From Catajapyx aquilonaris (lineage: Eukaryota): DNA of 64,000 bases. Position 1 is the stretch's first letter. The number at the start of each line of letters is the position of its first letter. The position numbers and the translations under genes were made by a program. Positions 984 to 33,562 of this stretch are shown here, in pieces. Under the pieces are notes generated by a model that saw only the letters and a list, made by a program, of their open reading frames with translations, searched no databases and was not told the DNA's origin. Where the stretch lies: contig JYFJ02001311.1 of assembly GCA_000934665.2 (NCBI GenBank), forward strand, positions 1 to 64,000. Reading direction: 5' to 3'.

Positions 984-1576
984 CTGCAATATGTCACAGC
1001 TTTTTAAGTCCAGTTGCACCTGATTTCAAACAGATTAAATTGAGATCATATGGCATGTGTAGTATGTACAGTGCATTGCTTGTAATGTAACTGACCATTA
1101 AAGATAATAATGTTAGGCAAAAAAAACCAAAGAAATATTTGTTACCCTTTTGGGCCTAGATCTTCAAGCAGCAGTAGAGATTTTCCTTGCAATTGATTAT
1201 AATCGCCATATATGTATTCGGGCACAGAGTGTCGCAGTTCAGAACTTCCTCTCGACTCTTCAAGCTGAATCATGCGGTGCAGCACCTCACGATATCCACA
1301 TATCTCTGTCACATTCATCTTGTTGTCGATGACAATTCCCTTCACCACTTCAACTGTTGGCAGTAGCTTTGCCACCAGCTGGAGTTTCTCACCATCATTG
1401 CCAACCACAGCTTCCACTTGAACCATGTTGCTGAGCCATCCCTTGCCCTCCTGGTATCCATCCTTCGTAACAATGCTCTTGATGCACAAGTCCTGGCCCC
1501 TTGAAATTTTGAGCACCTGTTGCAACCATTCAGCTGTTATGTCCGTAGCAGAGGCTGGGATACTATGAGCAGCCAT
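251..1576 (-). CDS. Ecdysteroid kinase-like (EcKL / choline-kinase-like CHK domain) phosphotransferase, 2 exons: join(1576..1146, 983..251), 387 aa
   Basis: Two track ORFs join through a phase-2 GT-AG intron at 984-1145 (AAAGG|GTAAC ... TTGCAG|GTAT), giving ...LLLEDLGPKGYDNVD.... Total 1164 nt, ending in TGA at 251-253. Family motifs: ITAEWLQQVL, LVAKL, E..Y (TEICGY), LLLEDL, ARLHAAS, LDFWNNNFMF, KLVDWQ. Confidence 0.88.
1146..1576 (-). CDS. EcKL gene coding exon 1 (431 nt)
   Basis: ATG at 1574-1576 in AAA ATG G context; donor GTAAC at 1145. Confidence 0.85.
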
Positions 1577-1953
1577 TTTAGGTGTCTGACCTACTTGTTA
1601 CTATTACTTGCAGCGTACAGTCGTACACCACCCAGGATATATGGATGTAGGCCACAATCAGCAATGTGTTTGCTTGTTAGTGTAGGATTGATTCCACCAG
1701 GTATGAGGAAATACCCGGACGTTGCATACTCAAGGTCCCACTTTTTTTTTTATCTCAAGGCTTTTGCATGTGTAGAGTCTATCGTGTGGAGTGTATCCAA
1801 TGAGAATGCATATATGTTGTGTTGAGTTTAATAACCTACAGTGATAAATGCCACTTATGTTGCATAATTAGACCTAGTGAACTAACCTTATCTTTCAATC
1901 AATATTATCATGGGGATAGAGTGCCTTCAACTTGACCATGACTTGTGTAATGT

Positions 1954-2457: not shown

Positions 2458-2806
2458 CCCTGTTGGGCCCGATCTTGAGTATATATACTTGTATTTACCC
2501 ACCTTTAGCCTACGGCCCTATATACCAATACTCCATGGAGTGAATTTCTTGACAAGAGAGTGATGAGAAATGAAATGAAAGATCACCCATAAGGTTTAGA
2601 GACTTATTGTATTGTGTTAAGATACCACTTAACCGATTATTAATGTTATGTCAATTACACATGTTCTCCAATAAAAACGTAAACCATTTTATCCCTTTCC
2701 CAAAAGTCGCAGGCTATTTTTTAACACTTATATCACGAGCAACACCACAAATAACAGTTTATACCTAAGGTTCATACATCACACGAAACAAATTTAAAAA
2801 CCATCA

Positions 2807-4349
2807 TTAAACCAAGGTCTTGATGACTGGTGAGGACTGCCTCCTTGGCTTTGACGAAGAACCTGGTGGCATCAGCATTGAACTCTGCTGAGACTGCATG
2901 TTGTTAGTGTTGGACAAGCCTTCCACGCTCTTGGCCCCAAACTTCTCCATGGCTCTAGCAACAGCACCTACACATAAGCGATTCCATGGCTGAGCGAAGA
3001 AGGACAAATCCACATGGGCGCTTCCAGAACGTTGCCGTGGACCTGTTGGACTCGGACTTCTCGCTGTTTCTGACGTGTCTTCGCTGCTGCTGTTTCCGGA
3101 TGCTTCTTCTTCTGAAGAAAGAGACTCGGACCGTAAGAACAGCGGAGGAAGATGTTCCTCGTCTTCCCCTTCAGTGGATGGAGTCATTGGCGCTTCATCA
3201 TCAAGCGGTGCGGTCTGGATTGTTATGCACGGAATCAGTATGGTGGTCCCCTCCTCTGAATTGTTGTTCTCAACATCGGAGCCAGATTCGGTCGTTTCCT
3301 GGTTGACATCGCTTTCTTTGTTGTCCTCCTGGACTCGGGCGATAGTTTCTTGCGCTTTGAGTAGCTTTCTGAACGGCGACGGAGAACGTCGTGAATCTCC
3401 AAGAGGTGAGAAGCAATAACTTCTTTCCGGAGCCACAGCCACTGAATGCCGACGAGGATTGGCGTTGTTGGTGTTGGTGTTGGCGATGGAAGTGGTTTCA
3501 CACTGCTTGTTGAAGTTGAGGATGAGTTGTGCCACGCTTGGTTTTGGAGGAGGCGGCGCCTTGTTGTTCTGTGGCAGCTCAGTCGGGACGTGGTCTTCAT
3601 TCTCGTCCGATTCTGATGTGTCCATGGCTTCTACTGGGGGCGCTTCAGCTGCTGGTTTCTCCGGTTGCGGTGCTGGTTCTTCCTTCTTGTCCGAACTGGT
3701 GTCCTGTGACGACGACCCCCGGTTGAGCAGGGTCGGCTCGCTTTGACTCTTGCTCCAGAAGAACGGAAGCTTCCTGAAGTGAAGAGGCGACTTGGGCAGT
3801 CCATCCACCTTCTTGTCTTCTGCCTGCTCGCCCTCTGGCTCCTCCGGGAGAGGCGTGCATCTGGATGGCCCCAACAGAAGACACTCCAGTGAACCCTCTG
3901 GAACCATCGGAGAGGACAAATGGGACAGCCTCCAGCCGCCGTTAATGCTGCTGGCGCCATTTCTGGTGGCAGCCGGTATGGCCTCCTGCGACCTGGACAG
4001 CGACTTGAATGACCAGTACATATCTTCGGCTCCGTGATGGTGACGGTGACTCAGCAGCCTGTCCCTGGACCTGCTCAGGCTCATCTTCAGCTCCCAGAGA
4101 CGCTCCCTGGATTTGGACACGTTCTTCCGCAGCTCAGTTCCGGCCAGCCTCTCGCACAGAACTTCTCTGGACTTGGACAGGTTGGCTCTGAGGCTCATGG
4201 TGCTGTGGTGCAGATGCTTGATGCTCTGTCGACGCAGTGCTGGTGTTGGCTCTCCGGTCGGTGCCGACACCTGTCGAGCCAGAGGAACTGTCTTGGTGCA
4301 ACCAACTATCCATGGATGCTTCAGGCCTTGCTTGGCTGACAGTCGTGCC
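2807..4349 (-). CDS. Paralog A coding exon 6 (end of kinase domain plus ~500-aa low-complexity tail)
   Basis: CTTCACCAG|G GCA CGA CTG (RARLSAKQGLKHPW); long open frame to TAA at 2807-2809. Confidence 0.9.
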
Positions 4350-7300
4350 CTGGTGAAGACATATTTTGTCAATCACAATGCCAAAACATAGCTTGGTTGA
4401 ATGACCAAAAAGCAAAACTCAGGGACACAAACGGTTACAAGGAGTCAGGTTTCACTTTTTCGTTTGACTTTTCGGCTGATTAGGATCACCTGTACAGAAG
4501 GACCAATGACACCGGCTAGAAGGTCTTCCACTATACATTCCTGGTCACATCCGCATGCTACGGTCCAGATTCCCGATTTAAACAGGTAACGGTACAGCCA
4601 CAACATTAATCGGGTGTCCCAGACAACCTGACAGCCCATCAAACATAACAGTTTTCTAGTCTCTAGTTTTACATATACAGCAGTAGGTCACTTATGCAGC
4701 CGTAAAGTATTGCCCCAAACTGCAACGAGTAATTATGTTGAGACCAATGGCAGTAAAAGTTGTCAATTTGCTTTTTAGTGGACCGGAGTGCCCCATGCCT
4801 GTGCAGCTTCTTGTTTCAGTTAAAAGAAAGGAAGCTCCAAGCCCTGTCCTGATCCCAGCGCGATATCAGTCATGTCAAGCCTCTGCCTTTCTCGAGCCGA
4901 CAGAGGCACAATTAGTCAGCTGTCACCTTGGTGAGGTCGCTCACCTGGGCTCTCTGACGATGAGCCGGCGGATGAAATCTCGAGCCTCTTCAGACACGTC
5001 CTCGAACAGCTCCTCTGGGAAGTCTGGCAGCTCTGGGTTCTGACAAATGTTCCAGAAGGTCTCCTGGTCCGTGTCTCCAGCGAAGGGCGAGAATCCGGTC
5101 AGAAGGACGTATGTGACCACACCCACTGACCACATGTCGGCGGCCACCGTGATGGGCTCGAACTGGAGGACCTCCGGAGCTGAAAGGAAATTTTATTTAT
5201 TCATTACACATGTAGAAGAAAATGCACCCAGTGCTTGTTGATTAAGTAACTCAATAAATTTTCAAAATACTGTAATGTTAATTAAATCAATTTTAGTAAA
5301 TAATGCGAGGGAATGAAATATTAAGCAATAAATATAATTAAGCAAATAAAAATTAAGAAAAGAAATTTATCGATTAAAATAAATGAATAACTTGAAATAA
5401 ATTACTGGAAAATAAATATAGCCTATCAATTTAAATCAAATGATTAAAACACAATTAATGAATACCACTTTAAATTACTGCGGATTAAAATTTATGAAAA
5501 CACATATTTTGAAAGAAAAACTGCTGTCAATAATAAAAAAATCTCAGAAATTGCGTGTGCAATATATTTCAAGTGAATTTTATGTTTCGAGATGATTCAG
5601 AGAATAAGGACAAAAAAAATGCATCAAAATGTCTCTTACCGACATAATCAGGTGTGCCCAAAATCTCTCTGACCTCGGCTCCGTCCAGGATGACACGTGA
5701 TATTTCAAAATCGCAGAGTTTGACGTCGCAATTTGGGAATGGTCCCATCATCACCAAATTCTGGGGCTGCAAATTTGGCCTGTGATTAGTCGAGTGACCT
5801 TCTCAATTAAGGATGTTGCCTGTGACGCAAATGCGGACTCTTTTGCGAATTGCAAAAATGACGAAATGGCCATGCTGACCTTGACAGCTTCGGCCTTTTT
5901 TTTTGTATACTGTCGAGTGCCCAAATGTGGGCAACATCGCGGGTCACGGACTCCCAGGTGTGCAAAGATGCCCTTCCCTCAAAACGTGACATTGGCCACT
6001 TGGTTTACAGGATTGGGCCATTACCTGCCCTTTTTAAGCCCGCTTCCGAAGGCGGTTCTTGCATTTTGCACATCCACTACTTAAGGAAGATGCCGCGCAC
6101 ACAAAAAAATTGCATAGCATGAGGAAAAAAGACGCGGTCACCTTGCAAGGTCAGGGTCATGCTCTATCAGGATGTGAGTCAAATCAAGGTCATTTTTTTA
6201 AGAGTCGAAAATGTACCTGCAACGCCCAAGAAATCGTGTGCTGCGCACATCTTAGTGGTGGTCACAATCTTCCCGATTAACTACCTGCTATTTGCAAGCA
6301 GATGAGTATCACCTGACTGAAAATTACAGCCTTGTCACCTCTGGCGACAAGGGGAACCTGCTGTCTGCACCGCCTCATAAAACCGGATTTGAAATTGCGG
6401 ATTTGGTAGTAACTAGTAGGCTAATTTTTCCAGGAAAAATTTCCGCCGATTTTTATAGAGGTGCTAAAATAAATTGCGCTGCGCACCACACCCAGTGGTC
6501 TGATACCAAATTTGGGGCCTACCTTGATGTCCAGATGGGCAATCTTCTTGTCATGAATGTAAGCCAACCCTTCCAGCATCTGCTTCACAAAGTTGACCAC
6601 ATCTCGCTCGAACGGAACCATATCATCATCAATGATGCTCTGCAGATCACCACCACTCGCACTGAAACAACGCCGACATTAATTAATTACATTAATTATT
6701 ATTTGGGAAGTAATTAGGATGACTTACTATTCCATGACCAGAACCACGTCAGTTGGAGTCTCAAACACGTCCTGTAGTTTGACAATCTTTGGGGACGAGG
6801 ACACGAAGGAAAGAAGTGCTGCTTCGTGCAGAAGTTCAGCTGTACAGTCCGAGCCGTACCGAAGTCTGCTTGCAAATTTGGCTGCATACACCTCACCTGT
6901 CTGCCTGTGTCGGACACGCTTCACCGTCGCAAACAGTCCGCTGTACACACACACAAAAAAACGTGTCATCTCCATATCCAGTTTTCCTTGTGTAACTCAA
7001 ACTCGGTTTCCTTTTGTGTAAACGCTAACGAGGCTTTTTATCTACGTCGCGGAAGACAGTGCTCGGTGAGAAATGGACGTCCGGGTGCTGCCCAATGTCA
7101 ACTACTGCCTAAACATTTCCCCCAACTTTATGTGTATTCTATCAGAAAGGCGAGGTCACTCCATGACTAGCTGATACCTCGGAAGTTGGCTGCTAATGAG
7201 GATTTATGAGCGATTTTTAAGAGCAAGCTGACTTAATAGTTGGTCACTAACCTACTGCCCCTGCCATATACATTGTGAGTTGATTTGGAGGCATTTCCCA

Positions 7301-13300: not shown

Positions 13301-14362
13301 CATCTCGAGAGGCATTTGCCCCCTTTTACTGATGGTGCAGTGGGAAACGCTGGCCATTTACTTCTCACGCGTGCAATAAATCTCTTCGGTAATGATGCTG
13401 TAACTCTGTGCTCGGATTCAGGCTATCTGGCGAGAGCATTCCGTCAGCAGAAGCCTCCAGCATTTAACTGTTTAAAAAGTGCACATTCACTAAATTGCAC
13501 AAATTTTAGAAAAATAATTTTTGGCCGAGTGGACTGTTTTATGACAAACTCAAAAACAGATCAGAAAATTGTGTAAAATTTTACCCCATTCTGCAGAAAC
13601 CATTGCACAATTATTAGTAATCACCCTGAATTTAAATAGGCCATTAAATTTATTGCTTTCGTTTAGTATTTAATACAGAGCTCCCCAAGTCCACAGTCTA
13701 TGAATCAAGTCAGCTATTACGAATTGCTTCCTCGAGCAACCAACAAACACGACAAATGGACCAACTGATCTGATTTTTCCGACAGGTTGCTTCTAAATTG
13801 GTTGACATACCAAATAACTTCTCCGCTCCTAATATGTAAACATTGGCCATGCCTCTATTTACCTCCATTTAAAAGACTCCTGGTACTCACGTGACTATTT
13901 GATAGCTGTTAAATAATTATGCAAATTATTATTCGCGCAAATGGTTGTCGTGCTACAAACATTTGAAATATAGAAATTAAGTAATACCGGCAGTGTTTGA
14001 TTACCCTTCGTGACCCAAGATCGTTTTCGACGCCCCATACCCTTGCATAGCGTGATTACACAATACTCGTCAAATCCCACTATTCACCCCTTTTCCCATC
14101 AAACTTTCCCCAAATAAAAACCAGCTTGAACTTACGTTGCGAAAGGTTCCTCCTCCACCTCGTATAGCTTGTCGATGGGCTGCTTCCTAACCATCTTGGC
14201 CACCTTATCCGGCGGCAACGTAACCACACCATTGTTGACATTTGAAAAATCGCATGAGGCTGCATCTTTGGTCCTATCTCTCTTCCGACTCCGACAACCC
14301 TTGGCCTTCCCTTTGCCCTTGCCCCTACTCCTCTGGTTCACCGCTGGCTGCTGGTAGATCAT
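2807..14362 (-). CDS. DRAK/STK17-like Ser/Thr kinase, divergent paralog A (DFE variant): join(14362..14136, 6940..6728, 6661..6523, 5766..5640, 5179..4945, 4349..2807), 827 aa
   Basis: All five introns are GT-AG with consistent phases (2,2,0,1,2), total 2484 nt. Motifs: PFATGLFATV, YAAK, HEAALL, MEYASGG, HLDIKPQN, KLCDFEISR, GTPDYVAPE, DMWSVG, HPW. The ATG has A at -3 and an in-frame TAG 10 codons upstream. Confidence 0.92.
4945..5179 (-). CDS. Paralog A coding exon 5 (235 nt; APE...DMWS...EPR)
   Basis: CCTTTCAG|CT CCG GAG ... GAG CCC AG|GTGAG. Confidence 0.93.
5640..5766 (-). CDS. Paralog A coding exon 4 (127 nt; PQNL...DFE...GTPDYV)
   Basis: TTTGCAG|CCC CAG AAT ... TAT GTC G|GTAAG. Confidence 0.93.
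6135..6192. promoter_or_regulatory. Cluster of nuclear-receptor half-sites plus an AP-1 site in intron 3 of paralog A
   Basis: CGGTCA 6135, CAAGGTCA-GGGTCA 6146-6159, TGAGTCA 6175-6181, TCAAGGTCA 6184-6192. Confidence 0.3.
6523..6661 (-). CDS. Paralog A coding exon 3 (139 nt; to HLDIK)
   Basis: TTTCAG|T GCG AGT GGT GGT ... GAC ATC AAG|GTAGG. Confidence 0.93.
6728..6940 (-). CDS. Paralog A coding exon 2 (213 nt; subdomains I-V)
   Basis: TGTACAG|C GGA CTG TTT ... ATG GAA TA|GTAAGT. Confidence 0.93.
12962..13004. promoter_or_regulatory. Promoter-like motif cluster (ETS, CCAAT, NRF1/ewg-type) inside intron 1 of paralog A
   Basis: CACTTCCG 12971-12978, ATTGG 12979-12983, TGCGCCTGCGCA 12993-13004. 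Confidence 0.35.
14136..14362 (-). CDS. Paralog A coding exon 1 (basic N-terminus, pre-kinase segment, start of G-loop)
   Basis: Ends EEEPFA-AC|GTAAG and is homologous to paralog B exon 1. A likely acceptor (TATTTCCAG at 14539) would put 5' UTR at 14363-14538 in the same exon. Confidence 0.85.
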
Positions 14363-17300
14363 CTTGTTGGTGTGTGCACAGATTGAGAGCTATCGGAGAT
14401 CTACCTCATCACTGGAGGCTGATCAAGGAAGGAATGGTGAGGGGGACGCGTGTAGGAAGACTACACGGAGTTCTTGTGGTGTAACTTGCCTTGACTCTTA
14501 CCTCGGACTCACCTCGCACGCTCATTGGACGAGGGGGCCTGGAAATACACGGATTCGTCACTGCCCACCATGCCATTTAGGCGCAATTTTATGCGTTGTC
14601 CGGCATTTGTATGGGGATGTGCGCACTAATCCAGTTTTATATTCAGAGCTCTGGGGCATCGGGTTGCTCAGTAAATATGGATTAAAGCTGTTTTTTTTAA
14701 CGAAATACAAAAAATATAAAAATTTAATGAAAAATAGCATGATGTCACAACGAAAATATGCTCCTGTAATTTTCATTACGTTTTGCCATTTCCTCCTAGT
14801 TACTTCGTTGATTAGAACCCTAGCCATTTCATTTCGTGATACTGGAAGTGAAGGAAATTGAATCTTAAAGGGACGGAATGAACTCGAGAGTAATCAGATA
14901 CTGTGTATAGCCTACCTTCAAGTAATGACCACATGAAGTAGTCAAACTTAAAAATTCAATATATAAGCAGAGCAATATAATGCCCACCAAATGTGCGTCA
15001 TGCTTTAAAAATATATTTAATAGCTCAAAACCAGAGTCACGTTTCAGTAAAATCTAATACCCACAGTGTGGTTTACTGCGTCGCATAGTTTTTACATATA
15101 AGGCGAAGCAGCTCGAGTGGTCATATATTTCCAGTCGTGTCCAGATTTGAGTATTGGACTTCACCTTGTGCGCGAGCGTTGCCGCACGTTGTCCTCACTT
15201 CCATTTCCTTCCTGTCTTTTTTTTCCATCGAAGGTAAGACCTGCCCCGTGTGAGGATCGGCTTTTGGCCAAAGGGGTTTGCTCACCCGGCTCGAATGATG
15301 ACTGGCTTTTCTTCCCCAACAAATGAGTTACCATCAATTTCAGCTCGGACGTCCCCTCCTGCTTATTAATGAAGCCAGGTAAAAGACATGTAGACGCGGA
15401 TTGAGCTGCGATTTTTCACCGATTCAAGGCTATGTGTGAGTCGCTATCCCACTACCACACGCTGGTTGTTAACATCGCAAATATTTGCATACCTCATGCG
15501 AGTAACAACAAGACCATCGTGGGTCGTCCTGTCACCTGACATGTCATTGGGGAAAATCGCCCGTCACCACATGCCCATTGTGGATACCTATCGCTCATAA
15601 CACTTATCATAACAACATGAACAGTTGGATCTACAATACGGGAAAAATATTTATAGACTCCAGATTTTTTTTCCATCTACAACTGTGGACTTGGAACACT
15701 GCACTAACAGTAAATACCATAGAAGCCATTATACCCTATACTGAAACACCAAGTTTACGAGGGTTCTGACTGGGCAGGCACCTGTAATTCAAAAGAGAGC
15801 GCAGGTGTCAACCGGGCCATGTTACACCCTGTATATAAGCTGCGTTTGTCACCTTAAATCCATAAAAACAAAATATATCGCAGGGCATCCGTTCAGTATA
15901 CCCAAGACACCCATAAAACCTAGCGATTTATGCCTGGCAATCCGAACGCCGCTTGTAACAGGGCATGTAGTGAGCCGTTCACATCCACCTTGTTGGTCCG
16001 ACCTTTGACCCCTGCGTTTCCTATCAGTCCTTTTGATCAATCAATCCAACATGACTCGAAAAAGTCCCTTGGGCATCGCACCAATCCTCGACGCCTTCGA
16101 TTTGACCTCCCATTTCTCTCGCACTGCAAAAAGGCCTTTTGGTTCGCGCCCTTGTACCGACAGCCATTCCTCATGGTCCAGTACGAGAATGTACTAATCA
16201 ACCAATGTACAGGCCCAAAAAAAATGTGCAGGATAATACCTGATATGGTACTTTTAGAAGAGTGCAAAATGTGACCACCCAAGTGCTGAAGACACTCCTC
16301 GAGGTTACTATCCAAATTCAAGGTCTGGTTACAAAGGAATGCAAAAAGCAGTCGGCGACTTTCCGGCAGCGTATATAAAAATAAAAATAAAAAGTAGGGG
16401 GCGACGGCACCCAACTTTTAACAACGACAACAACATACCAAAAAAAAAGTTGATGTATATTCTTTGGCCGAGCCGAATGGCCGTGAGGTCTCTTCTTGCC
16501 CATTGGTTCGGGGCAATGGTTGGTCACCAACCTCACCTGGTTCGAAGTTTCGGAAAAGGAAGTGAAGGTTAGATGCCTCTTTTTGATATAAAGCGGTATG
16601 TCGTTGCCAATACTTGAGTATTAATCCGGTCTTCTGGGTTGAAAGGTCGGGCTCTACGACTCTCTTGCTAAGGAAATGTTCAAGTTCTTCCGCCATATTT
16701 AGAAAGGGTTTTCCAGCTCAACGGTACTTGAACCCACATAATTCATCGGCTCCAATATTGTACCCCGAGCGGTTGGTATTTTATAGTGAGAAAATTATTG
16801 TACTGTATACTTAATATTCAAATCTTGCACCATTTTTAAGCGGACTAAAATTATAAAATCTGTCATATGCCTGTGCGTCAGAATAATATGGTCTGGTCAT
16901 CCCATCTGTATTTCGCAAAAACAAAAAAATGCAATTTCACTACAAAAAGACATCATCAATTAATTTATTTATTATCACCTCTTGCTGGAACACCTTCACT
17001 AATGTGTATGAAGGATTATAGCAAATTCATCAATACATGAAAACAAAAAAAGCTATATCTGCAAAGCTGACATTTTCTGCAATATGCTGCCATCTTTGTA
17101 CAAGTTACGACAATTTATATTAGAGTGATCGTATGTGTATAGCCCCACATGTCTTTGTGATTTCTTGCATTTCTCATTTGGACATGGGCGTCAAAATATG
17201 GTTTACGGTAATTACAGATAATGCGCCACGTAGAACCTTGTGACTGTATTTTGCATAATAAAGTGTACCAACAAAAAAATGGCTATTTTCATCTAAGGAT

Positions 17301-22315: not shown

Positions 22316-23444
22316 TCAAATGACCATCTCAAACTTCTTGATTCTGGCTCTGACACTCTGGCAGTGAACCTCGGCCTGCTTGGTCAGTGACCCCTTCCGA
22401 TGCGTGAACTCTTGGATGACCACCACATCCCCTCCAGCCAGCTTGAAGTTGGAGATGACCCTCGAGCGACCAGTGTAGGCTTTAAGGGTCTCCCGGGCTG
22501 GGCTGCTTCCAGCTGACGAGGCATTCAGTGATAGAGAGTTGAACTTCTCATATGCTCGTGCAAAGGTGCCATCACACTCTTTCTCCCAGCACCTCCCAAC
22601 GCGATCCAGGAAGTCCAAGCTGCCTCGCCGCGCCCAGTGACTGGTCAATAGCGACGATGACGACGACGACGACACGGATGATGCCAGTGAGGTTAGAGAT
22701 TCGTATCGGCGATGCGATGGATTCAAGGCAGCAGAGGCACTCAGGTCGACTGAATCATCGAGTGATATTATGCTGGACCGGTCACTGGAGGAGTCTGCTG
22801 AGGACATCTCACTGACTTCATTGCTAGACTCACTCCCCCTGTCACAGGAATTCTCTCGGTGCGGGATGGAGAGCAGGTTGCGGCCAAGAGCTCTTCTTGC
22901 TCCCCGCGTCCTCCAGTCACGGTTGTGAGGCGTGGATGTTAGTTGCGCAACAATGTAAGCAGCTGGTGATGATGACTGAAGGCTGAAGCGGCGGTTGTCG
23001 AGGCAACTGGCAGTGCTGTGCCGCCTGGCAGGGCTAATGGTACGCTTATCCAGGATTGGGTTGCTGTTCAGGTCGAAGGAGTTGTCCAGCAGTGGAGTCC
23101 CAGGCAGTACTGTGAGCGGTGTGGGAAGTGGTGGAGGTTCCAAAGGCAGTGGTGGTGGCAGGTCTTCTTCGCTGGGCAGGATTGAAATCTCTGCCCTCTT
23201 CTCCTCCTGGGCTAGCATCACTTCAGCATTTCCATTCATGGCATCAGAGTGGACACAGGTGCAATTTGGTTTCAGTTCTTGCTGCTTCTCCTGTGCTGGC
23301 AATACTACTGGCTCAACTGGAACAACTTCTACGGGTGGTACTACTGCTTGTGGCGTTACTGCTTGCGGCGTGAGATGTCTCGAGACCTCTTCCTTCTTGG
23401 CGAGCCATGGATGATTCAAACATTCGAATGCGGTGAGTCTCTCA
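22316..23444 (-). CDS. Drak: Paralog B coding exon 7 (end of kinase domain plus Pro/Ser-rich tail)
   Basis: CACTTCCAG|T GAG AGA CTC (SERLTAFECLNHPW); open to TGA at 22316-22318. Confidence 0.9.
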
Positions 23445-26400
23445 CTGGAAGTGCAAGGGGTGTTATCAGTCGCAATGAACGCATTCACTTGGCTCTGCAC
23501 GAGCACAATAATGAACAAATTACACCTTGTAATTTCGCTTTACAAATTAGATGCTGAACTGGTCTGAATAGGAAATTGTGCGGGTCTCACCTGGATTCTT
23601 TGACCAACAATCTTGAAATGAAGTCTTTGGCTAAGTCTGAGACATCCTCAAAGAGCTCTTGAGGAAAATCCAACTTGCACTGGGTGATGTTGCAGAATGT
23701 CTCCTGCTTGGTGTCTCCTCCAAACGGCGAGTATCCTGTAAGCAGCACATATGCCAGAACTCCCACGGACCTAGTGAGGGAGAGAAAGTCCGACTTTAAT
23801 AACCTTTTTTTTGTAACCCATAAGATTCTCACCTACAACTTTCATCCCCAAGGTTCTTAAGCAACACACACCTTTAGGTAAGTGCATCCTCCCAATCTAT
23901 TATTAACAGCTGTTTGGAGATTCCAGACGTGACCGCAAAAAATGAGATTCTCCAGCAATTACAGGCAAGGGAGGCAGACCAAAACCCGATCATTACAGCA
24001 TGGCGGTGGGTTCTATAAATCACTACCATCGGGATCGACTTCTGGTTAAGGGAGTCGACTTACCCCCTTTTAAAGTCAAACTGGTATGTTAAGGGCAAGC
24101 AAAACTGGCCCCGAATGGGAATTAAGTTTGACACCAGTTTTTTAGTCACACAGCTTCTACGGTGATGAAGCTGATGATAATGTTAACTTACCACATGTCA
24201 GTGGCCAGGCTGATTGGCTCGTAATTCAGGACTTCTGGAGCTGCAAACACAAGCAATGAATCAGTATTCTGTTAATTACATCACCATATATTTGCAAATC
24301 AAGATATTTATTTTAATGTGCAGTGATTCTGTCTCATTTCTTTCACTTAGTAAAATTATTTATTATGTAAGAGAACAACAAGCCCTGACAACTCACCAAC
24401 ATAATCCGGCGTCCCCAGTAATTCTCTCACATCAGTTCCTTTGGCAATGTATCGTGATATTCCAAAATCGCACAGCTTCACTTCGCACTCCGGGTAATCT
24501 CCAGTCAGTACCAAGTTCTGCGGCTGGAAAAGAATAAAAGAAGTGAGTTCAACAGTTCACCAAAAATTGGGGCACAACTTTCAAGCAATTTTGGCCAGGA
24601 ACACACCGCAAAGGGGATGTGGATCACACACTTCACGACCTCTCCTTTTTTTTCTTCTTCTTCCAACATGTTTCTTTTCAACTCCCCTTCTCCCAAAATC
24701 GAGCATTGTCATCCATCTTGGGTATTGACCCTCAGTGTTACATAACGTCACGACACTGCTCCACTTGCACTTGTTTTCCGCCTGACTCGCCTCGGATAAT
24801 CACTTTTAGCACGTCCGTGACTCTCCCAAAAAGTCACACCTTTTTTTTTTGCCATTTTGCCTCACACCCAAAATTCAAATTTTACAGCTTCAGATAACTT
24901 TGATGTTCGATCATAATCAAGGTGGGCCCATCCCAACCGATCATAAAACTGTTCTTTTTTTTATTTATTAACAGACTTGTTCATCCCCTAAGCCGACCCT
25001 GTCACTCGAGCTTTTCGCCCCTGGGCCAAACGTTTCTACTAGGCCACAGACATTACGGTACTTGTCGGGAGGGGCCAGAAGGTGACCCCCTCCAGTAAAG
25101 GGGGGACCAAATGATCAGTTTTTTTTTTTTAATTCCAGTTGGTGAAGTGCACTGTACAAATCGCAAAAATAGATCGCGCCTATGATCAATCAACCTGAGT
25201 CTATAATCAGCAAGATGTTATGATCCGGCCCTAATTATGTTTCAGACCGATAATAACAGTGACTTTGGAGGACATGCCTATTATACCGACTGGGGTGGGG
25301 TTTGCTAAAATTCCAACCTGCATCTTGCCATTCTGAGGAGGAAATGGTCGCGAATATTACAAGGTCAACATTTTAAAAATTTCAAGTGTCTCTTTAAGAT
25401 ATGGCGCCCAGAAGCTCGCCGTATCTGAAGGCACCCTACTTAGGACGGGTTATAAATAATGATTCCACCACGTTTTAAAGCTCGCGGACATCATTTTATT
25501 AAATCCCATCACGAGCCATTTAAAAACAACAAAAAAAATGGTTGGGACTCTGATCAAGTGGCGGCTGACAGCTCGGCGCCTCGAAGTGCCATACTTGTGC
25601 ACCGTTATGCCAATATAAGCCTTACCCCTAGAGAGGTCACGTTTTATTTTAAAACGCTAAAAAATTTATCTAGTAATCGTGCCATATAAATCCATCCACT
25701 CCTTTCTCTATCCACGCCCTCACGTTTCTCGGATTAGTTGTGCTCCCTATGTACAAGGTGTGACAAAATCTGTTTACTGGCTTTTGGTTTACGATCTCCA
25801 AATTGCAAAGGGTCAAGTTTAGCCAACCCCTTTTAAGAGGAAGCCAGGTGGTCGCATCAGGACCGCATTCCAGCGACCAAAAACCGATCTTCTGGTGATG
25901 ACCCAAAGTGTCCCAAGGACCGAAGGAGTGGCAAAACCGGTCCAGAAGAAATTCGAGACGCTCTCTTGCACGCGACCTCGTATAAACCAGTTGAGGTCAA
26001 GCTTTTGCACACCGGGCGACAAGCTTTCCACTTGAATGGTGCTACACAAGACGATGCACTGTGCAGGATTTTTCCCTCCATAAGGCTTATAGTTCAGGGT
26101 CGGCTTTGCGACACTACATAATTCAGGCTAAGGAATCGACCGACAGGAATAAAGTCAAGGACCTCGCGGAGCATTACCAATCGATCATCTTTTACGAAGG
26201 TATAATCCCTGTAATCCGATGTCCCGTTATTCGACAATAATAATAAGGCGCGCGAGGTTCTAGGGTATCCTCCAGTGTTGGTAATCGGTATCTCACCTTG
26301 AGGTCCAGATGAGCGACATTCCTCTGGTGCAGGTACGACAGCCCCCCTAGGATCTGCTGCATGAATTTGACAGCGTAGGACTCCAGCATACCTTCCTCGC

Positions 26401-29400
26401 TGTCGAGGATGGTCTGGAGCTCACCACCTGGAGCGCTGGAAAAAAAATGAGACACACGGTGATCAATCAATTTGAAAGTTGACCATGACCATCTGTATAA
26501 TTCGACCCGTGTTAAAGGTTCCGATTGCATACCAAGCCACGCCTTATGTCCTCTGGGGTATTACATAGCTCTGCTTTCACTGGCACATTCTCATGATTTA
26601 AAAAAAATTGTGCCGCAAGACTCATTGCTCCACACAAATTGCGAAAAAAAATGCTGCTGGAAAAATGACTTACAGTTCCAGGATTAGCACCATCTCTGTC
26701 GGCGTCTCGAAGACTTGTTGCAACCGGACGATATGTGGACATTGCGATGCCAGTTCTAGGACCGCGACTTCGTGCAATATCTCTGTCGTCTGGTCAGCGG
26801 TTCGTCGACGCTTCCGGATGAATTTGGCTGCATATGACTGCCCACTTGCTCGATGTACCACTCGCCGTACAGTAGCGAACTTGCCTCTGAAATAATTAAT
26901 AAATAATTAATAATGCTGGCATATAGAGGGGGCGGTGCATAGCCTACTAATGTCATCGAGGTTGATAATATCTAACAAAAATTATAGGACGCAGTAGCAG
27001 CTAGACCAGCAGCTGCGAAAAAAAAATCAGTTTGCAGAGGTCAAACTTTCGCAGCGGGTCAAGTGCCCCTTTCGAAAAAAAAATGTTGTGGGGAGGTTGT
27101 CTGGAAGGGTTGGGAAGTCGAACAAGAGCCAAAAACTCCGCGGTTATGCGAGACTAAATAACCTACATTGTCCTCGACTCCCCAGTTCATTAAATTCCTT
27201 CTCGAACTGGGTCAAACTGATAAAATTGATACCACTTGCATACTTGACTCGTTGGGGGGAGACGCCTTGGAGTTTTGGGTTTCACCACTCGAAATACCAG
27301 TGAACCCATTTCTTGACCATCGAAACTCTAACTTAAACAAATATGTGGAATGCAAATACACAAAGTTGATGCGGAAGCAAGGTTGCTGGATTGAACAAAC
27401 CCTGTGCTTCTGACGTTTCATTGATAAAAGTGTTGCGCATTTCCGTTCCATTTGATAAGATGAGTAAACGCGTCCCCATTGACAAAAAGTCTGCTGACCA
27501 TGTCTTAAGAACACATGACCAGTACTGTTCGTAACTTATATTTTTATCACCGACTTTCGCACGACTTTTGCCCACAGACAGGACCAGCTCTTACGACATA
27601 TTACCTTGCCCTCTTCACTGGTTCCGCCAGTTTAAAAAAAAATCTCTTACAAACACCTGAAACCCGGGGCGGCAACAAATAACGCCTGACTAACACTCGC
27701 TAACCGCATCATCCGACATCCCCATCTATCTCCCTCATGCTGGAAAAACCATCCGATCCGCAAGATTACAAGCCTCCCTGTAATTGGCCTCCCAATGAAC
27801 TCAACGAGGTGCACACACGCTGTCAGGAAGTTAAAAGTTGACAACCGTTCCGGCAATAACCTGCGACATGTCCGAAAAAAAGTATCCGCTACTTTTCCTC
27901 ATTACCCGCGCTCTTTTCCTGTGAAAAACAAATGAAAAAAAAATTATATATAATTGGATCGTCCAGCATGACCATTCTTACAAAGTATAAACGGAACGTC
28001 CTTGCCCCCTTACAAGCCATTATCAAGAACCCCTCTTTAAAAAAAAAGGCGGTCCCAAAACGTTGAACCCATCTTCTCAATTTTTTTATATACACCTTTA
28101 TACCCATCGGTTGGAAGGTACACGAACGCCTCCAAGGCTTTTGAGGCATCCCGAGGGCCTTGACACGACCTTGGGAAGGACATAGCCCGGATCCAGAGGT
28201 CACGCACAATCTTTTGTTTTTTTGACCAACCCCGTAAGGCACCGTGTGAACAACCCAACGGAAATTAAAAACTTGCTAGGGAAAACAACGAGCTTGGAAT
28301 TTCCAAGATGGCCCCCGGGTTTCGAAGCTGGGAGGTAAACAGAAGGTTCCTCGAACAAAGAGAAAAAAAAAAAGTGTGCAGACACACATCTGCTCTATCC
28401 AGCTGCTCTGTTGGGTCACCCCCTCCTTCAGGGTCGTAGGGACAAAAGGGACACCCCAAAAGAATGGGGACGCGTGCCACACTCCATTTCGAAATCTGGC
28501 GGTCCAATCGCCCAAAAACCAGTAACGGCGGAATTTCAGCGCACAATAGCCAGGAGATAACCAATAACTGTTCTGCTGTCCACAGGTTCGCCGCCTAATA
28601 CCTGGTTCTAAATATACCCCAGATAAGGCGATTACCTCCAGAACTAATCGACTATACCGGTGCAAAATCTGCCGTCATTGACCAAGAATGTCCACATGAC
28701 TCCCAACATATGTGACTCACACCCATATTTGAACAGGTACGTGGTACGTGCCGCAACGGACAATTCCGGAACCCAAGAAGGACTCCTTCCGGTCGTTTCA
28801 CCTCACTGACTAAATTTCCATGACATGGGAACATGGGAACGAAGCCCCCAACGGAACACCCGAAAAAAAAAAAAATCGGAAGGGAAGCGTATCCTAACAA
28901 AAGCATGGTTCTCACAATTAAAAGGAAGTTTCCGGTATTCATCTTCGGTTCTGCTGTATAAGGTAGGTGGTCTCAGAATAAAACCCGGGCCCAACGTCCT
29001 TGTCAGGGTCGACAGATGAAAAGGAATGTCCAGCCCCTCCCCTTTTATGCCTTTACCTTCCCCGCATTCCTCGAGTCTACCTTTTTCAAAAAAAACTTTC
29101 TTCAGGGGCGGGTTAACCACATTTGACAGACTCATACTGGCCCATCACAATATTTGGTTCGTTGCCTCGGACACATGTGAAGCAAGGGTGTGAACTCTGA
29201 AAAATTCAGTTGCTAATAGCTAGTGGCGGTGAAAGTGTGAATTCTCACCCCCCCTAACGACAAAAAAATATGCTCTTGAATATGGCAACCACCGCATACC
29301 ACAACAAGTGCACTTGAAGGCGCGAAAAGAAACGGATGTGGACATAAAAAGGTGGTGACCTTCGATGGCTGAGACCAGAATCTTTTGGCCAAGAAAGGAA

Positions 29401-32400
29401 ATCCGTAAGGAGAAGCCCTCCCCCAGCCAGCAGCCGCTGCCTTCGAGGAAGGTCAGAAATAAAAGCGACAAACTGTACGGAGGCGGCTTCCCCATTCACA
29501 CTCTCAAAAGTGTCGGCATTGGCCTCTGCCCAAAAAAAGTAGTAAATAACTTTTCGTAACGTTTTGTAAACACGTAATGCCATGTCGGCACAACTTGCAA
29601 ACCGTCGATGCCAATTGCCAAACATATGTTTTTTTTGACCTACCCTAATCCCGGACCCTGTATATGTGCCAAGACTTATTTGATCAAAAGACACGCCCTT
29701 GATCTTCCGTCACTTCCACCCTAAGATGGCGGCTCCGGAAGGAAGTGGCTTCACATCCGGTTTGGCATTGACCGTAGCCGATTGTACCCAAGCTTAAAAA
29801 AAATAAGCTCACCATAATTCATATTAGTACAAACAAGTCTGGATTATCATAAAGAACCATATATGCCCACCAGTTCAAGGCTGACCTTTTTGCGAAAACT
29901 AGACCGTCAGTAGAGGGTCAAGGGTGACCTCCGCCTTGCAGTTATTTACCAAACTGTGATAAGGCAGTAAAATGGGTAAATAAACCCATTCTTGCTCCTT
30001 GGTTGGAGGTACCCCCCCTTAGGGCGCGTCGGCTTGATGAAGGTGAAATCACCGTTACATTTTGGCCATCCGAATAACTGGTTTGGAATACCCCGGCTGA
30101 GGAAATAACTGAAGAAACTGGATCTGCAATCATATTAATTTTTTTTTTTTTTGCGCGCACTTCAACCCCGGCCTTACCCCCTTCCTTCTTTTTTTTCCGT
30201 GTGAATTGGGCTACATGCCGAATAATTAGCAAAAGGCCACGATTTTCACAGGTTTTGAAATTGTTGTTTACGTGCTCTGAAGCTCAAAACACTCCACTGG
30301 ACACCCCCCAACTGGTATGGCATGTCGAGTACACACTGCGACAATTGTCGCCTAGGTCAAGTTTAACGCATCCACACACGTAAATAGAGAAAGTTGGGAT
30401 GCGCCAAACTGCAGCTTGAGTTGTGTCCCGACCCACATCCGATCCTACCCTCTAAAACCAAGAGCCCCTGCTGCTATACCACCTCTTGTCCGAGAGAAGT
30501 AGGTCTGCTCGTCTGTGGATCCGGGGTGCAATTTCCTGAAGGCCAACGTGATTTACACCCTTTTTCACTACTTATTGCCGGAACTACGTTTTCTCTACCA
30601 TTAAAAAAAATTTAAAAGTAAAAAAAATCATTGTAAGTAGGCCTACAGTATACAATATAACATGTATCCCAGAGGTGACAATGTCATGCCCTTATCATTT
30701 GAGTGACAATGGTGCTTCATTGTTCCGACACCATCACTTGTGTAAAAAAGTACGCAACAAACAGCTACCGCGCCTACAGGCCAAGGTACAGTTGGGCGCC
30801 ACAGGGCACATATGACCCTCCCACATGTCTGGGTCGCACACCGGTTACCCTCCTATGCCTTGACCGCAGACAACGCAGCTCAACCACTTTTATATTCGCC
30901 AAATGTTTCAAATACCCATGGACGTAACCATTGATCCGGTTCCTCCACTTCCATTATCGAGTTCCGGTCTTCTAGGAAGTGACCTGCTTCAGGGGGTGCC
31001 TCTTTTCAGGGTCTGAAAAGGGGTGCAGTAAAGAGGAAACAGGCGGCTGTTGTTGATCAGGTGCTAACCGAAAATGTCCCCAGGGGCCGACCAAAAAGCC
31101 CACGTGCCTGTTTCTGATCCGGCCAAATATGGCCAGCAGACCCCCACAAAACCTGCCTGAAACTTACAGAGAGAGGAGGGGTTCAGCGACAGGCCTATTT
31201 CCATCCGTTGGGTCAAAAGACGGTTCAACGAATCCTCGAGGTCGCCAAACTTCCTGTCGATTTATGCAATTGTCCGTTGTTATTTTTTTTCTCTTCTTCT
31301 TCTCCCAACACCCCACCGACGATGGAACCAGTTGGAGGGTCTTCTTCTAGGGGTGTCCCCTCTCCATCCCTTTTGCTTGCTGTCATGATGGGTCAACCCT
31401 GACAGGGCCACTCCCCTTGTGTGTCTGGAGCCGTTGCAATAACTCAGAGGACAGCAGGGGGAATCGGCCACGAATTTTCCATTGTCGTCTCTTCCTGCCA
31501 GGCCAGACTTTATTCACCTCTGGCGGTTTGGAATGGACTCGGAGGCGCCCACACACATGACAGATTTTATAGAGTATAAGCTGGGGGAGTCGGCAATGTT
31601 TGTCGCACATAAGGGAAAAACCTGCTCAGTACGGAGCCGTGTAATTAACAGTTACTATATAACAATCCTGATTTTATGAAGTTGTTTCACCTCCACACCC
31701 CCACACCCTCGCAACTTGATGCGCCGCATTTATTTACATCCCAGTCTGGCCATGGTATGTGTTGACCTCTGAATCACTTGTGTACACAACATCCAAGAAA
31801 AACCGCCTTATCAGTTTCCTGGCCCGTTGACTCACGCCAATACAACTCGGACCTTTGGTCCGGTCATCAATTCAACACCACTGTGTGCACACTTCGGATC
31901 CCGTTACCAATATTTTCACTGAAGTAAATGACTCTGCAAATACCGACGTGGAAGTGATCGGTACGCTGCTGCATTGTCACCACTTTCTTCGTCGCAAAAC
32001 ATTGCGTCACATGTCCTTCGGTCGCGTCGAAGACTTTCTCGACTAATTAGAGTGGATGGAGAAGGGTGTTACCCTTCCCCTTCTCTTCCGACGTACCATC
32101 GGAGGGTACCGAGCACAGTATGCAAGGGAACCAGTTCCAAAAAGCGCGCAGCCTACTTTCAAAACATTCCAACTCCTGAGGAGGGCAAGAGTGAAACTGC
32201 CAAGGCCGGGCTATCCCCCACACACAGTACACAACATACACACCTTTCCAAACATATTTTCCCACACATACACTTGGCCACACTCCCAAATATTTTTTTT
32301 TCCTCCATTTTTTTTTTTTTAACTGGTCGTTTACCTCCCCCCATCCACGTGCTTCCTGGCCGCCAATGTCGGCGACGTAACCGAAAAGTCGGCACCGATT

Positions 32401-33562
32401 CAAATATTCTTCAGGGTCTGGGCCACATCCCCAGAATGTTTCACTTGGCGCCGCCGTCCGTATGCAAAAAAGAAACGAAAAGGGGCCTATATCGGCTTCG
32501 AAACAGGTTGGGTAAGATGTCCGGGGCTTTCACTGTGACCTGCCCCATGCACTTTGTCCTCTAAACACTCAGAAAGTGAGTGACAAAATTTGTGTACAAG
32601 GCTTCCTTAGAGACGGTGCAATTTGTATGTACCGCCTCATACACAGCCTGGAGTCAATGTTCCCACCATAAGCACATTAGGCCAGCAATTGTTACGCCAG
32701 CATAATCGGCCTTGATGGGGTGCCCTACCTGCGCTCCCGAAAGCACCATACTGTACACCCTGTACCGGAGTCAAAAAATCGCCAATTTTGCACACCGACC
32801 GCTCTTTAAATTTAATGCTTCTTTATGCAATAGGCACAACCGTATGTCCTTAACCCGGTTTAAAACATGCATATTACCAACATTCGCAAAACGGTACTTT
32901 CCGTCTATTAATAATTATACCCCCGTGCTTCCAATTTTTTATGGATCCAACCTTCACCCTTGAAAGAATGGCCGTGGCCGGAGGCTGCTCGAAGCCGTGA
33001 AGAAGGCTCAGGTCACAAGGTGGACCTCATTCTTTTGTCTAAACCCGTCCGACCGTCCACCATGCGTGTCTGGACTTGCCACATCTGGCCCGCACCACAA
33101 TTTTTTATTTTTAAAAAAATTATGAATTAAAAAGTGCGTGGGGTCCACATTCGGATGACCTCCGACCTCATGCTCCCGGACTTGAAGGCCGATCAAAGGC
33201 GTGGTTCGCACATGAAGGCCGTTCGATCCCGGATTTTTACCCTTTCTCTTAGTCCGCGGCCATATGTCCGCACAGGTGTTACACAGCTACCGTTGGATGG
33301 ACCGAGTCAAAATGGGGTTATATCAGGAGCAAAAGTCCGTTGCAAACGTGCATGACCGCTGGCCTACTTCCATTGTCCGGACTTACCGAGCAAACGGCTG
33401 GTCCTCCACTTCGAAGTGTTTGGTCAGTGGTTCCTGCACCACCAGTCGGTCCATCTGCTCCGGGGTCAAGCAGAAGAAGCCCGGATGTGTGGTACTCAGG
33501 TTGCAAGATATCCTGGGGTCACCTTTTCCCATGGTGCCATCCACCGACAACAGTTCCCGCAT
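22316..33562 (-). CDS. Drak: Death-associated protein kinase related (DRAK / STK17A-B type) Ser/Thr kinase, canonical paralog B: join(33562..33387, 26886..26674, 26435..26297, 24523..24397, 24240..24192, 23770..23591, 23444..22316), 670 aa
   Basis: Six GT-AG introns with consistent phases (2,2,0,1,2,2), total 2013 nt. Motifs: PFARGKFATV, YAAKFIRKRRR (DAPK-family basic loop), EILHEVAVL, HLDLKPQN, KLCDFGISR, GTPDYVAPE, YEPISLATDMWSVG, GDTKQETFCNI, HPW. The start codon is the least certain part. Confidence 0.93.
23591..23770 (-). CDS. Drak: Paralog B coding exon 6 (180 nt)
   Basis: CCCTCACTAG|G TCC GTG GGA ... GAA TCC AG|GTGAG. Confidence 0.93.
24192..24240 (-). CDS. Drak: Paralog B coding exon 5 (49 nt; not in the ORF track): APEVLNYEPISLATDMW
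   Basis: Hand-translated; TTTGCAG|CT CCA GAA ... GAC ATG TG|GTAAGT. Confidence 0.93.
24397..24523 (-). CDS. Drak: Paralog B coding exon 4 (127 nt; not in the ORF track): PQNLVLTGDYPECEVKLCDFGISRYIAKGTDVRELLGTPDYV
   Basis: Hand-translated; TTTTCCAG|CCG CAG AAC ... TAT GTT G|GTGAGT. Confidence 0.94.
26297..26435 (-). CDS. Drak: Paralog B coding exon 3 (139 nt)
   Basis: TTTTCCAG|C GCT CCA GGT GGT ... GAC CTC AAG|GTGAG. Confidence 0.94.
26674..26886 (-). CDS. Drak: Paralog B coding exon 2 (213 nt)
   Basis: ATTTCAG|A GGC AAG TTC ... CTG GAA CT|GTAAGT. Confidence 0.94.
33387..33562 (-). CDS. Drak: Paralog B coding exon 1
   Basis: ACA ATG CGG (MRELL...) to EDQPFA-CG|GTAAGT; candidate upstream acceptor TTTGCATGTAG at 33800. 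Confidence 0.82.

Follow-up and report, generated by a model that had tools for sequence, protein, structure and literature searches.

The stretch of DNA analysed here (the window) comprises 64,000 nucleotides of a Catajapyx aquilonaris contig and contains two related kinase genes on the minus strand, termed paralogs A and B, with B located 5′ of A. Their features are as follows.

14136..14476, minus strand: exon 1 of A, with the 5′ UTR to the extent covered by the transcript contig; start ATG at 14362; last residues ...EEEPFAT, with which the glycine-rich loop is half complete; joint 6940/14136 in the transcript contig
6728..6940, minus strand: exon 2 of A, 213 nt; remainder of the glycine-rich loop (GLFATV), beta3 Lys97 (AAKF), degenerate basic loop (ASRLRYGSDC) and alphaC Glu115
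6523..6661, minus strand: exon 3 of A, 139 nt; hinge, GGD with Asp152, and the HLDIK part of the catalytic loop
5640..5766, minus strand: exon 4 of A, 127 nt; PQNLVMMG...CDFEISR...GTPDYV
5704..5712, minus strand: DFE codons of A (GAT TTT GAA), Glu214 in place of the DFG glycine; 0 differences there in the spliced contig X5
4945..5179, minus strand: exon 5 of A; remainder of the kinase core from APE onwards, with the clade-specific Asp273 (GDTDQETF); transcript joint given as 4348/4944 ("cut +1")
2807..4349, minus strand: exon 6 of A; last part of the kinase domain (HPW), then a tail of 500 aa; stop codon at 2807-2809
22316..33562, minus strand: paralog B, a DFG-type DRAK-like gene of 7 exons and 670 aa, predicted from homology and GT..AG sites
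33387-33562, 26674-26886, 26297-26435, 24397-24523, 24192-24240, 23591-23770 and 22316-23444, minus strand: exons of B (homology model)
24461..24469, minus strand: DFG codons of B (GAT TTT GGA), motif match

A tRNA scan of the whole window found none, and a Pfam search with four intronic or intergenic ORFs returned no families.

The model of paralog A joins six exons on the minus strand through GT..AG introns and encodes 827 aa, the length reported in an earlier note on this DNA. That note had held that A does not look like a decaying pseudogene and had proposed confirming the DFE base in reads and cDNA, and both points are borne out. Contigs X1, X2 and X4, which are DNA and possibly derive from the source sample, do not differ from the window over the exons of A. 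Moreover, a spliced contig of 2609 nt from another sample and study (X5) matched all six exons with 0 differences and spans exon 4 (5640-5766) with 0 other letters. X5 is read as RNA from its splicing alone, the library type being absent from its record. Because this spliced contig matches all six exons without a difference, GAA is not an assembly error and A is transcribed; the gene is intact and spliced. The idea that DFE reflects an assembly or sequencing error, or that A is a decaying pseudogene, can be dismissed with near certainty, as contigs from three DNA runs and the spliced contig of a separate sample and study agree, the 827-codon frame is unbroken with five of five introns GT..AG, the same residue occurs in orthologs of many species, and nothing was found in its favour.

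A motif match places DFE exactly where it had been reported, with D encoded at 5712-5710, F at 5709-5707 and E (GAA) at 5706-5704. The surrounding 20 nt of paralog A (TGCGATTTTGAAATATCACG, 5696-5715, minus strand) and of paralog B (TGCGATTTTGGAATATCACG, 24453-24472, minus strand) are the sole two matches within the window, and 0 of 100 shuffles yielded any. The two are alike at 19 of 20 bases, the single difference that the earlier note had seen lying at 5705; B reads GAT TTT GGA at 24469..24461. Recent gene conversion between A and B was rejected as the cause of this match. Over 286 aligned codons the paralogs share 61% nucleotide identity with saturated synonymous sites, residues identical in both use the same codon in just 41% of cases, and other conserved motifs are likewise alike at 18-19 of 21 bases. 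Three exons of B equal those of A in length (213, 139 and 127 nt) and phase. The nucleotide identity, the saturation and the shared intron positions together suggest that the duplication is old.

Few residues of protein kinases are as conserved as the DFG glycine. At this position Glu was found in 120 of 120 listed matches to the exon of A, all reading DFE, and in all 46 new matches to a full-length A-type query (45 DFE, 1 DLE). The alignment and tree were built from one representative per 50% cluster together with hand-picked named rows. In the resulting 116-row tree the clade containing A is well supported (UFBoot 100, SH-aLRT 96) and the G/E state changes once, with Glu in 30/30 rows of the clade (27 DFE, 3 DLE) against Gly in 82/82 other DRAK-type rows. 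The clade draws its members from eight orders of insects together with a springtail, malacostracans and a copepod. A-type sequences occur in bees, ants, wasps, aphids, planthoppers, lice, termites, locusts, dragonflies, mayflies, springtails, shrimps and copepods. Kinase-domain identity between taxa, measured on the same pairs, is 65-93% for A and 65-95% for B. The earlier note had mentioned DFEISR in DRAK-like proteins of other arthropods and had proposed that A is old and under selection, with orthologs to be sought by phylogeny. The motif does recur among the matches to the exon of A, the Glu-bearing sequences form one clade and are not private to this genome, and both the breadth of that clade and the conservation of its kinase domain, about as high as in B, agree with the proposal.

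On this comparative evidence, A belongs to an old, unnamed sister subfamily to the DRAK/STK17 kinases in Pancrustacea, in which the DFG glycine appears to have been exchanged for glutamate once (DFE, rarely DLE) and never restored. The subfamily is apparently undescribed so far. Searches of open-access text turned up no publication that describes a DFE variant in any eukaryotic protein kinase, DRAK-like or other, and the papers found on DFE-motif kinases all concern bacterial enzymes. The Drak of D. serrata is of the DFG type and falls outside the A clade, and Drosophila is described in the relevant part of PMC13225219 as having a single DRAK ortholog. Drosophila thus probably lacks an A-type gene; more broadly, flies, moths and beetles appear to lack one, as none occurs among the named D[FL]E sequences recovered.

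With the exception of the glycine, the catalytic core is complete. The protein contains AAKF (Lys97), HE (Glu115), HLDIKPQN (189-196), DFE (212-214) and APE (236-238), so that the beta3 Lys, alphaC Glu, catalytic loop, Mg-binding Asp and APE listed in the earlier note are all present in the 827-aa model. Across the clade, Lys97, Glu115, Asp191, Lys193, Asn196, Asp212, Thr231 and APE are each retained in 30/30 rows, which includes the full residue set of an active protein kinase (beta3 Lys, alphaC Glu, catalytic Asp and Asn, metal-binding Asp, APE). In common practice a pseudokinase is a kinase that has lost the beta3 Lys, the catalytic Asp or the DFG Asp. All three are kept in A and the DFG Gly alone is replaced, so A lies outside this usual definition, contrary to the suggestion of a pseudokinase that had been made for it. 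In the passage of PMC4718504 that defines the term, a pseudokinase lacks at least one conserved motif for nucleotide binding or catalysis.

The change at the glycine is accompanied by others around the same pocket. The ribose-binding Glu of GGE is Asp152 (GGD) in 30/30 clade rows, against Glu in 79/82 other rows, and Met200 (Thr in beta7 elsewhere), Asp133 and Asp273 are each found in 30/30. In the P-loop, the position of Lys78 holds Q, M, L or I in the clade and Lys in 74/82 rows elsewhere, while the position of Arg76 is Arg in 4 of the 26 filled clade rows as opposed to 74/82. A basic loop after the beta3 lysine is a signature of the DAPK family. The A clade departs from it, reading SSRxR(F/Y)G... 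where other DRAK-type rows read (K/R)KRRR, and the net charge of the loop is +0.87 (range 0 to 3) compared with +4.95 (range 3 to 7).

In spite of these differences, A remains closest to the DRAK/STK17 kinases. Its best PDB matches are STK17B (E 8.8e-73) and STK17A, followed by DAPK3/2/1; it shares with STK17A/STK17B and Drak the HLD(I/L)KPQN catalytic loop, the GTPDYVAPE segment and the overall domain, and its clade nests among HLDxKPQN DRAK-type rows in the tree, as expected of the STK17 subfamily. It differs from them in having DFE for the canonical DFG, GGD for GGE, S/T-G-Q/M/L for R-G-K in the P-loop and Asp for Lys in GDTKQETF, in having lost the basic loop, and in its long tail with SKSRExL.

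DRAKs are not known to have a calmodulin-binding, ankyrin or death domain past the kinase domain, and A shows none either, as judged by Pfam and by the disordered tail in the model of a relative. Four SKSRExL-type motifs lie in the tail at aa 371, 391, 405 and 431 (about 3977-4180), followed by a C-terminal W..C.G..ARA.EKF motif. The SKSRExL motif is present in 153/153 A-type proteins of at least 600 aa and in 0/85 B-type proteins. Pfam found no family in the tails of A (513-aa tail exon) and B. An AlphaFold2 model of a full-length A-type relative (P0235) is confident for the kinase domain and below pLDDT 50 for the activation loop and nearly the entire tail; the SKSRE region is modelled as a helix at only about pLDDT 56. 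In this relative the tail is accordingly predicted to be mostly disordered.

Paralog B shares its gene structure with A, and the two are linked in many species. For 38 species present in both listed sets, the contigs carrying A and B are identical in length. In several of these the locus tags are adjacent or nearly so, namely in Cataglyphis (006037/006038), Pogonomyrmex (006874/006875), Eretmocerus (011882/011884), Odynerus (009312/009314) and Lasioglossum (LOC143211671/143211673). Two aphid-lineage species, Daktulosphaira and Cinara, carry A and B on contigs that differ in length. Conserved linkage of the pair is seen in many, though not all, of the species compared. The earlier note had set A beside a canonical DRAK. 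A DFG-type neighbour is indeed present in the window, and the pair is linked in many other species, but the name DRAK fits B only approximately. B is 54% identical to Drosophila Drak, against 46% for A, and in the tree Drosophila Drak belongs to a third group together with beetle and moth sequences.

We consider it most probable (roughly 60%) that A has kept catalytic competence under a different mode of regulation, and can be compared with the DFD-bearing MNK. Because residues that serve only catalysis are fixed across very old lineages, A would still be expected to bind nucleotide and transfer phosphate, with the acidic residue at DFG+2 altering the behaviour of the activation segment. MNK is the well-studied natural acidic exception at this site, and its autoinhibited state has been exploited for selective inhibitors. 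Like A, the CAMK-like MNK1 and MNK2 combine an acidic residue at DFG+2 with an otherwise complete core; they are active kinases and would be the closest worked-out precedent, DFD favouring an autoinhibited "DFG/D-out" resting state. According to PMC3326643, this DFG/D-out state excludes ATP, and D228G permits both states. The precedent has its limits, in that MNK has Asp where A has Glu and A is not closely related to MNK, with no MNK chain occurring among the 42 PDB sequences matched at E up to 1e-40 (STK17, DAPK, twitchin, MYLK4 and a CDPK). Given MNK and the retained catalytic residues, A would most likely be a regulated kinase of low basal activity, whose ATP pocket has been remodelled and whose substrate or docking surface is unlike that of B.

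A secondary possibility is that Glu214 helps to place a metal-bound water. An active phosphotransferase, mycobacterial maltokinase, has DFE itself; according to PMC4306142, its Asp binds Mg and, in the complex with nucleotide, its Glu (Glu324) contacts a water bound to Mg. Maltokinases are, however, small-molecule kinases on a distant branch with a glycine-free P-loop, so that this is an analogy and not family-level homology.

Several points weigh against competence. Since the same glycine is invariant in 82/82 other DRAK-type rows, its loss could well cripple catalysis in A. ATP binding should be weakened by the loss of two basic P-loop residues and the gain of a carboxylate close to the phosphates. 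Moreover, some kinases that act mainly as scaffolds also conserve their catalytic residues.

The strongest alternative we regard as a serious possibility, although clearly less probable than a competent kinase. Here A would be a dead or nearly dead pseudokinase whose role is that of a scaffold or of an allosteric partner or regulator for B, the Glu locking the activation segment and the lost basic loop and acidic gains forming a surface complementary to the basic loop of B. An elsewhere-invariant Gly has after all been replaced, the charge of the cleft and N-lobe is strongly more negative in A while B retains a +5 basic loop, and the pair is found on identical-length contigs in 38 species with neighbouring locus tags in several. 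In addition, where no A-type was seen in a lineage, the Drak that remains evolves fast, as judged from long branches. The Tribbles pseudokinases, also of the CAMK group, offer a parallel, E[S/N]LED replacing DFG with Glu at the glycine position in the sequences discussed in PMC5382568. In Tribbles, however, the metal-binding Asp is missing, the glycine-rich loop is degraded and the catalytic loop is unusual, whereas A keeps Asp212 (30/30), Asn196, Lys97 and the catalytic loop. Drift at some catalytic residues would be expected of a pure scaffold, yet the three defining residues, Asn196, Lys193 and the ribose-contacting position are kept in 30/30 rows over very old lineages. The linkage may merely reflect tandem origin, and it is not seen in Daktulosphaira and Cinara.

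A more specific proposal, which we hold to be speculative and somewhat less probable again, is that DFE kinases form an obligate partnership with the DFG-type DRAK next to them, the two having been kept as a tandem pair since early Pancrustacea. The acidic A, devoid of a basic loop, would bind the basic loop of B and either gate its myosin-light-chain kinase activity or be switched on by it, the Glu serving to lock the activation segment from within. A loss of this layer of control in flies, moths and beetles would then explain why genetics missed it.

It is quite unlikely that A is a fully ordinary DRAK in which a tolerated, neutral Glu became fixed by chance in an ancestor. Other kinases do tolerate a non-Gly residue at the DFG position, and the Phe itself varies within the DRAK set, giving DLG and DYG. 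Against this, Glu is found in 30/30 clade rows, 120/120 listed exon matches and 46/46 further matches, and several other clade-invariant changes surround the same pocket. Neutrality is improbable because the Glu stays invariant although a single base change turns GAA into GGA.

A whole kinase subfamily combines an invariant DFE with a co-evolved nucleotide pocket, amounting to a natural experiment on the role of the DFG glycine. In most arthropods the A-type kinases may also provide non-muscle myosin with a second regulator, and their pocket appears to be unlike that of vertebrate DRAKs. There has been no genetics on the A-type because Drosophila seemingly lacks it. The A-type records recovered are annotated as "uncharacterized" or carry the names of unrelated kinases, such as GIN4, MARK, Nek4, PKH3 and NUAK.

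A scan of the window placed the DFE-containing 20-mer of paralog A, the DRAK-like kinase gene with Glu214 in place of the DFG glycine, at 5696-5715 on the minus strand and its DFG counterpart in the neighbouring paralog B at 24453-24472. There was no further match to either in the window and none in 100 shuffles. The two 20-mers differ by one base, at position 5705. The DFE codons lie exactly where the earlier note had put them, and the six-exon model of A yields the 827 aa claimed there. The gene models, and the alignment to the window of a contig from run X5 (another sample and study), are as follows.

14136-14362, minus strand: A exon 1, coding part, ATG at 14362
6728-6940, minus strand: A exon 2, gene model
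6523-6661, minus strand: A exon 3, gene model
5640-5766, minus strand: A exon 4, gene model
5712..5704, minus strand: DFE codons of A, GAT TTT GAA, from the sequence
4945-5179, minus strand: A exon 5, gene model
2807-4349, minus strand: A exon 6, gene model
2796-4348, 4944-5179, 5640-5766, 6523-6661, 6728-6940, 14136-14476, minus-strand gene: blocks of the X5 contig
33562 to 22316, minus strand, upstream of A: B, predicted gene model, seven exons, 670 aa

Contigs from three DNA sequencing runs (X1, X2 and X4, possibly the assembly's own sample) span the A region and have exons without any difference. The X5 contig, of 2609 nt, comprises exactly the six exons of A with no deviating letter, and five of five joints read CT..AC on the plus strand, that is GT..AG on the strand of A. 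It can only derive from spliced RNA (the library type of the run is not on record). The agreeing contigs and the spliced X5 contig therefore rule out both an assembly error at DFE and a pseudogene; the base stands, and the six intact exons of the transcript bear out the earlier view that A is not decaying.

By gene structure A and B are true paralogs, since three successive exons (213, 139 and 127 nt) agree in length and phase and the fifth exon of A is split in two in B. Judging from their divergence they are old: across 286 aligned codons their identity is 56% in residues and 61% in nucleotides, and the same codon is used at only 41% of identical residues. No sign of gene conversion was found, as the DFx motif (19/20 alike) matches no better than other conserved motifs (18-19 of 21). 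B and A lie head-to-tail with ~7.8 kb between them. In 38 species present in both match lists, A-type (DFE or DLE) and B-type (DFG) relatives are on contigs of equal size, which is only a proxy for the same contig (smallest case 165,817 bp, Pseudomyrmex). These include ants, bees, wasps, sawflies and parasitoids, and also Adelges, Macrosteles, Cyamophila, Lycorma, Anabrus and Ischnura. In Cataglyphis, Pogonomyrmex, Eretmocerus, Odynerus and Lasioglossum the two types carry neighbouring or almost neighbouring locus tags or LOC numbers. The contigs differ in size in Daktulosphaira and Cinara.

The 42-aa DFE exon of A matched 384 significant proteins, and DFE was present in 120/120 of those listed (the best 120 of 384); DFE-type orthologs, proposed as a check in the earlier note, thus occur in many arthropods. 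The corresponding exon of B matched at least 120 proteins, 8 of them fragments already matched by the exon of A; among the 112 new matches listed 111 read DFG, the motif being missing in one fragment. Both sets come mostly from common insect orders and frequently from common species. Scanning all 1.84 billion cluster representatives with an A-type kinase domain yielded further, more distant D[FL]E sequences. Named representatives came from Malacostraca (Oratosquilla, Hirondellea, Meganyctiphanes, Hyalella), Orchesella (Collembola), Ladona (Odonata) and several Hemiptera; a gene model labelled Tk03133, presumably from the copepod Tigriopus judging from the label, reads DLE. A third search, with a full-length A-type query, placed the one insect representative left unassigned nearest to lice and brought in Orthoptera, termites and further Odonata and Hemiptera (46 new matches: 45 DFE and one DLE, from a louse). 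The Phe of the motif varies by lineage: katydid and cockroach B-type proteins and a cluster-mate read DLG (P0253, P0262, P0269), and DLE occurs in A-type proteins of one louse and among copepod-like sequences (P0244, P0246, P0247, P0407). None of the named D[FL]E sequences was from Diptera, Lepidoptera or Coleoptera. From these search returns, rather than genome scans, we infer that the A-type was lost in flies, moths and beetles and is absent outside Pancrustacea. A single DRAK ortholog is described for Drosophila (PMC13225219); the sequence from D. serrata is of the DFG type.

A phylogeny of 116 kinase domains (LG+C20+F+G4) was built from A, B and DRAK-type representatives with near-complete domains, 20 named rows picked to cover a wide range of taxa, and 4 rows from outside DRAK, of which 3 formed the outgroup; fragmentary domains, including those of D[FL]E representatives, were dropped. 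All 30 D[FL]E rows fall into a single clade (ultrafast bootstrap 100, SH-aLRT 96) and the G/E change occurs once. Unnamed D[FL]E representatives complete enough for the tree fall with psyllids, copepods, malacostracans or lice. The window's A lies just outside the winged-insect members, with weak support (80/26), within a set including springtail and copepod rows (100/92). The clade thus spans insects, a springtail and crustaceans, in keeping with the earlier description of A as old. B falls close to the winged-insect B-type clade without belonging to it. Drosophila Drak is elsewhere, with beetle, moth and some crustacean DFG sequences. The dividing branches have only moderate support (88/88, 92/78), so B-type and fly Drak may be orthologs between which the rate shifted, or else two distinct paralogs. 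Drak sequences of flies, beetles and moths group together on long branches, away from the B-type of other insects, and these orders are those without a named A-type; loss of A may coincide with quicker evolution of the remaining DRAK.

The nearest solved structures to A are STK17B, then STK17A, then DAPK3/2/1, and A is therefore a DRAK-type kinase. Lys97 (beta3), Glu115 (alphaC), Asp191 (HLD), Lys193, Asn196, Asp212, Thr231 and APE are present in 30/30 clade rows, extending to the whole clade the beta3 Lys, alphaC Glu, Mg-binding Asp and APE noted earlier in A. Glu214 is invariant in the clade and Gly in 82/82 other rows. Likewise invariant are Asp152 of GGD (Glu in 79/82 others), at what we take to be the ribose-contacting position as in PKA, Asp273 (Lys in 71/82 others), and the clade-specific Met200 (beta7) and Asp133. 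The P-loop reads (S/T)-G-(Q/M/L) against R-G-K in others, and the presumed gatekeeper is mostly Met against Leu. Two marks of the DRAK/DAPK family are lacking: DFG, and the basic loop that follows the beta3 Lys and is presumably typical of the DAPK family (net charge +0.87 against +4.95 in others). When the same pairs of taxa are compared, kinase domains are conserved about equally (A 65-93%, B 65-95% identity).

With the Lys and both Asp kept, A is not a pseudokinase by the usual criterion. Residues serving only catalysis or nucleotide binding have stayed fixed across very old lineages, as has the remodelled pocket, and A is therefore most likely a kinase that works but is regulated differently (probability roughly 0.6). 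The best precedent is MNK1/2, where DFD takes up a DFG/D-out state that excludes ATP, whereas both states are open to the Asp-to-Gly mutant (PMC3326643). In maltokinase, an active bacterial enzyme, the Glu of DFE touches a Mg-bound water (PMC4306142). Three points speak against a working kinase: Tribbles pseudokinases carry Glu at the same place (PMC5382568), less positive and more negative charge near the phosphates could prevent A from binding ATP, and a partner role beside B would fit both the shift in charge and the linkage kept across species. Searches of open-access text turned up no account of DFE in a DRAK-like kinase or in any other protein kinase of eukaryotes, and database names of A-type proteins are 'uncharacterized' or those of unrelated kinases. 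The A-type is judged a distinct, old, unstudied DRAK-like subfamily.

An invariant K-S-R-E...E motif lies ~50 residues past the kinase domain in an alignment of 26/26 A-type proteins (first copy). The pattern S[KR]S[RQKH][EDH]x[LIM] was found in 153/153 A-type proteins of at least 600 aa, with 1-4 copies each, whereas it occurred in 0/85 B-type proteins; regulation or phosphorylation is a possible role. The copies in A are LSKSREVL, VSKSRERL, LSRSRDRL and LSRSQEAI. By eye, a C-terminal motif, W..(L/E)C.G..ARA(M/Y)EKF, is common to the translations of both genes; no search output gave a name for it. The consensus keeps W...C in A-type and B-type alignments, and RA...F also in A-type.

about 3977-4180, minus strand: four SKSRExL-type copies in A (aa 371, 391, 405, 431; span aa 371-438), pattern scan
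about 2880-2960 (A tail) and about 22480-22560 (B tail), minus strand: shared C-terminal motif, by eye

Elsewhere, immediately downstream of A, there is an ecdysteroid-kinase-like (EcKL) gene; EcKL is itself a kinase of small molecules and has the choline/aminoglycoside kinase fold. At 34-64 kb no long ORF with a family match turned up. Many contigs stop in a repeat in intron 1 of A, with loose ends at 12961-13009; summed contig depth there reaches about 400-610, compared with about 23-34 on either side.

254-1597, minus strand: EcKL gene, at least 2 exons, Pfam PF02958 (E 3.2e-26 and 4.8e-06)
12944-13337: short high-copy repeat in intron 1 of A, from contig depth
38880, 43467, 44756: three single N bases in the sequence, gene-poor right half of the window
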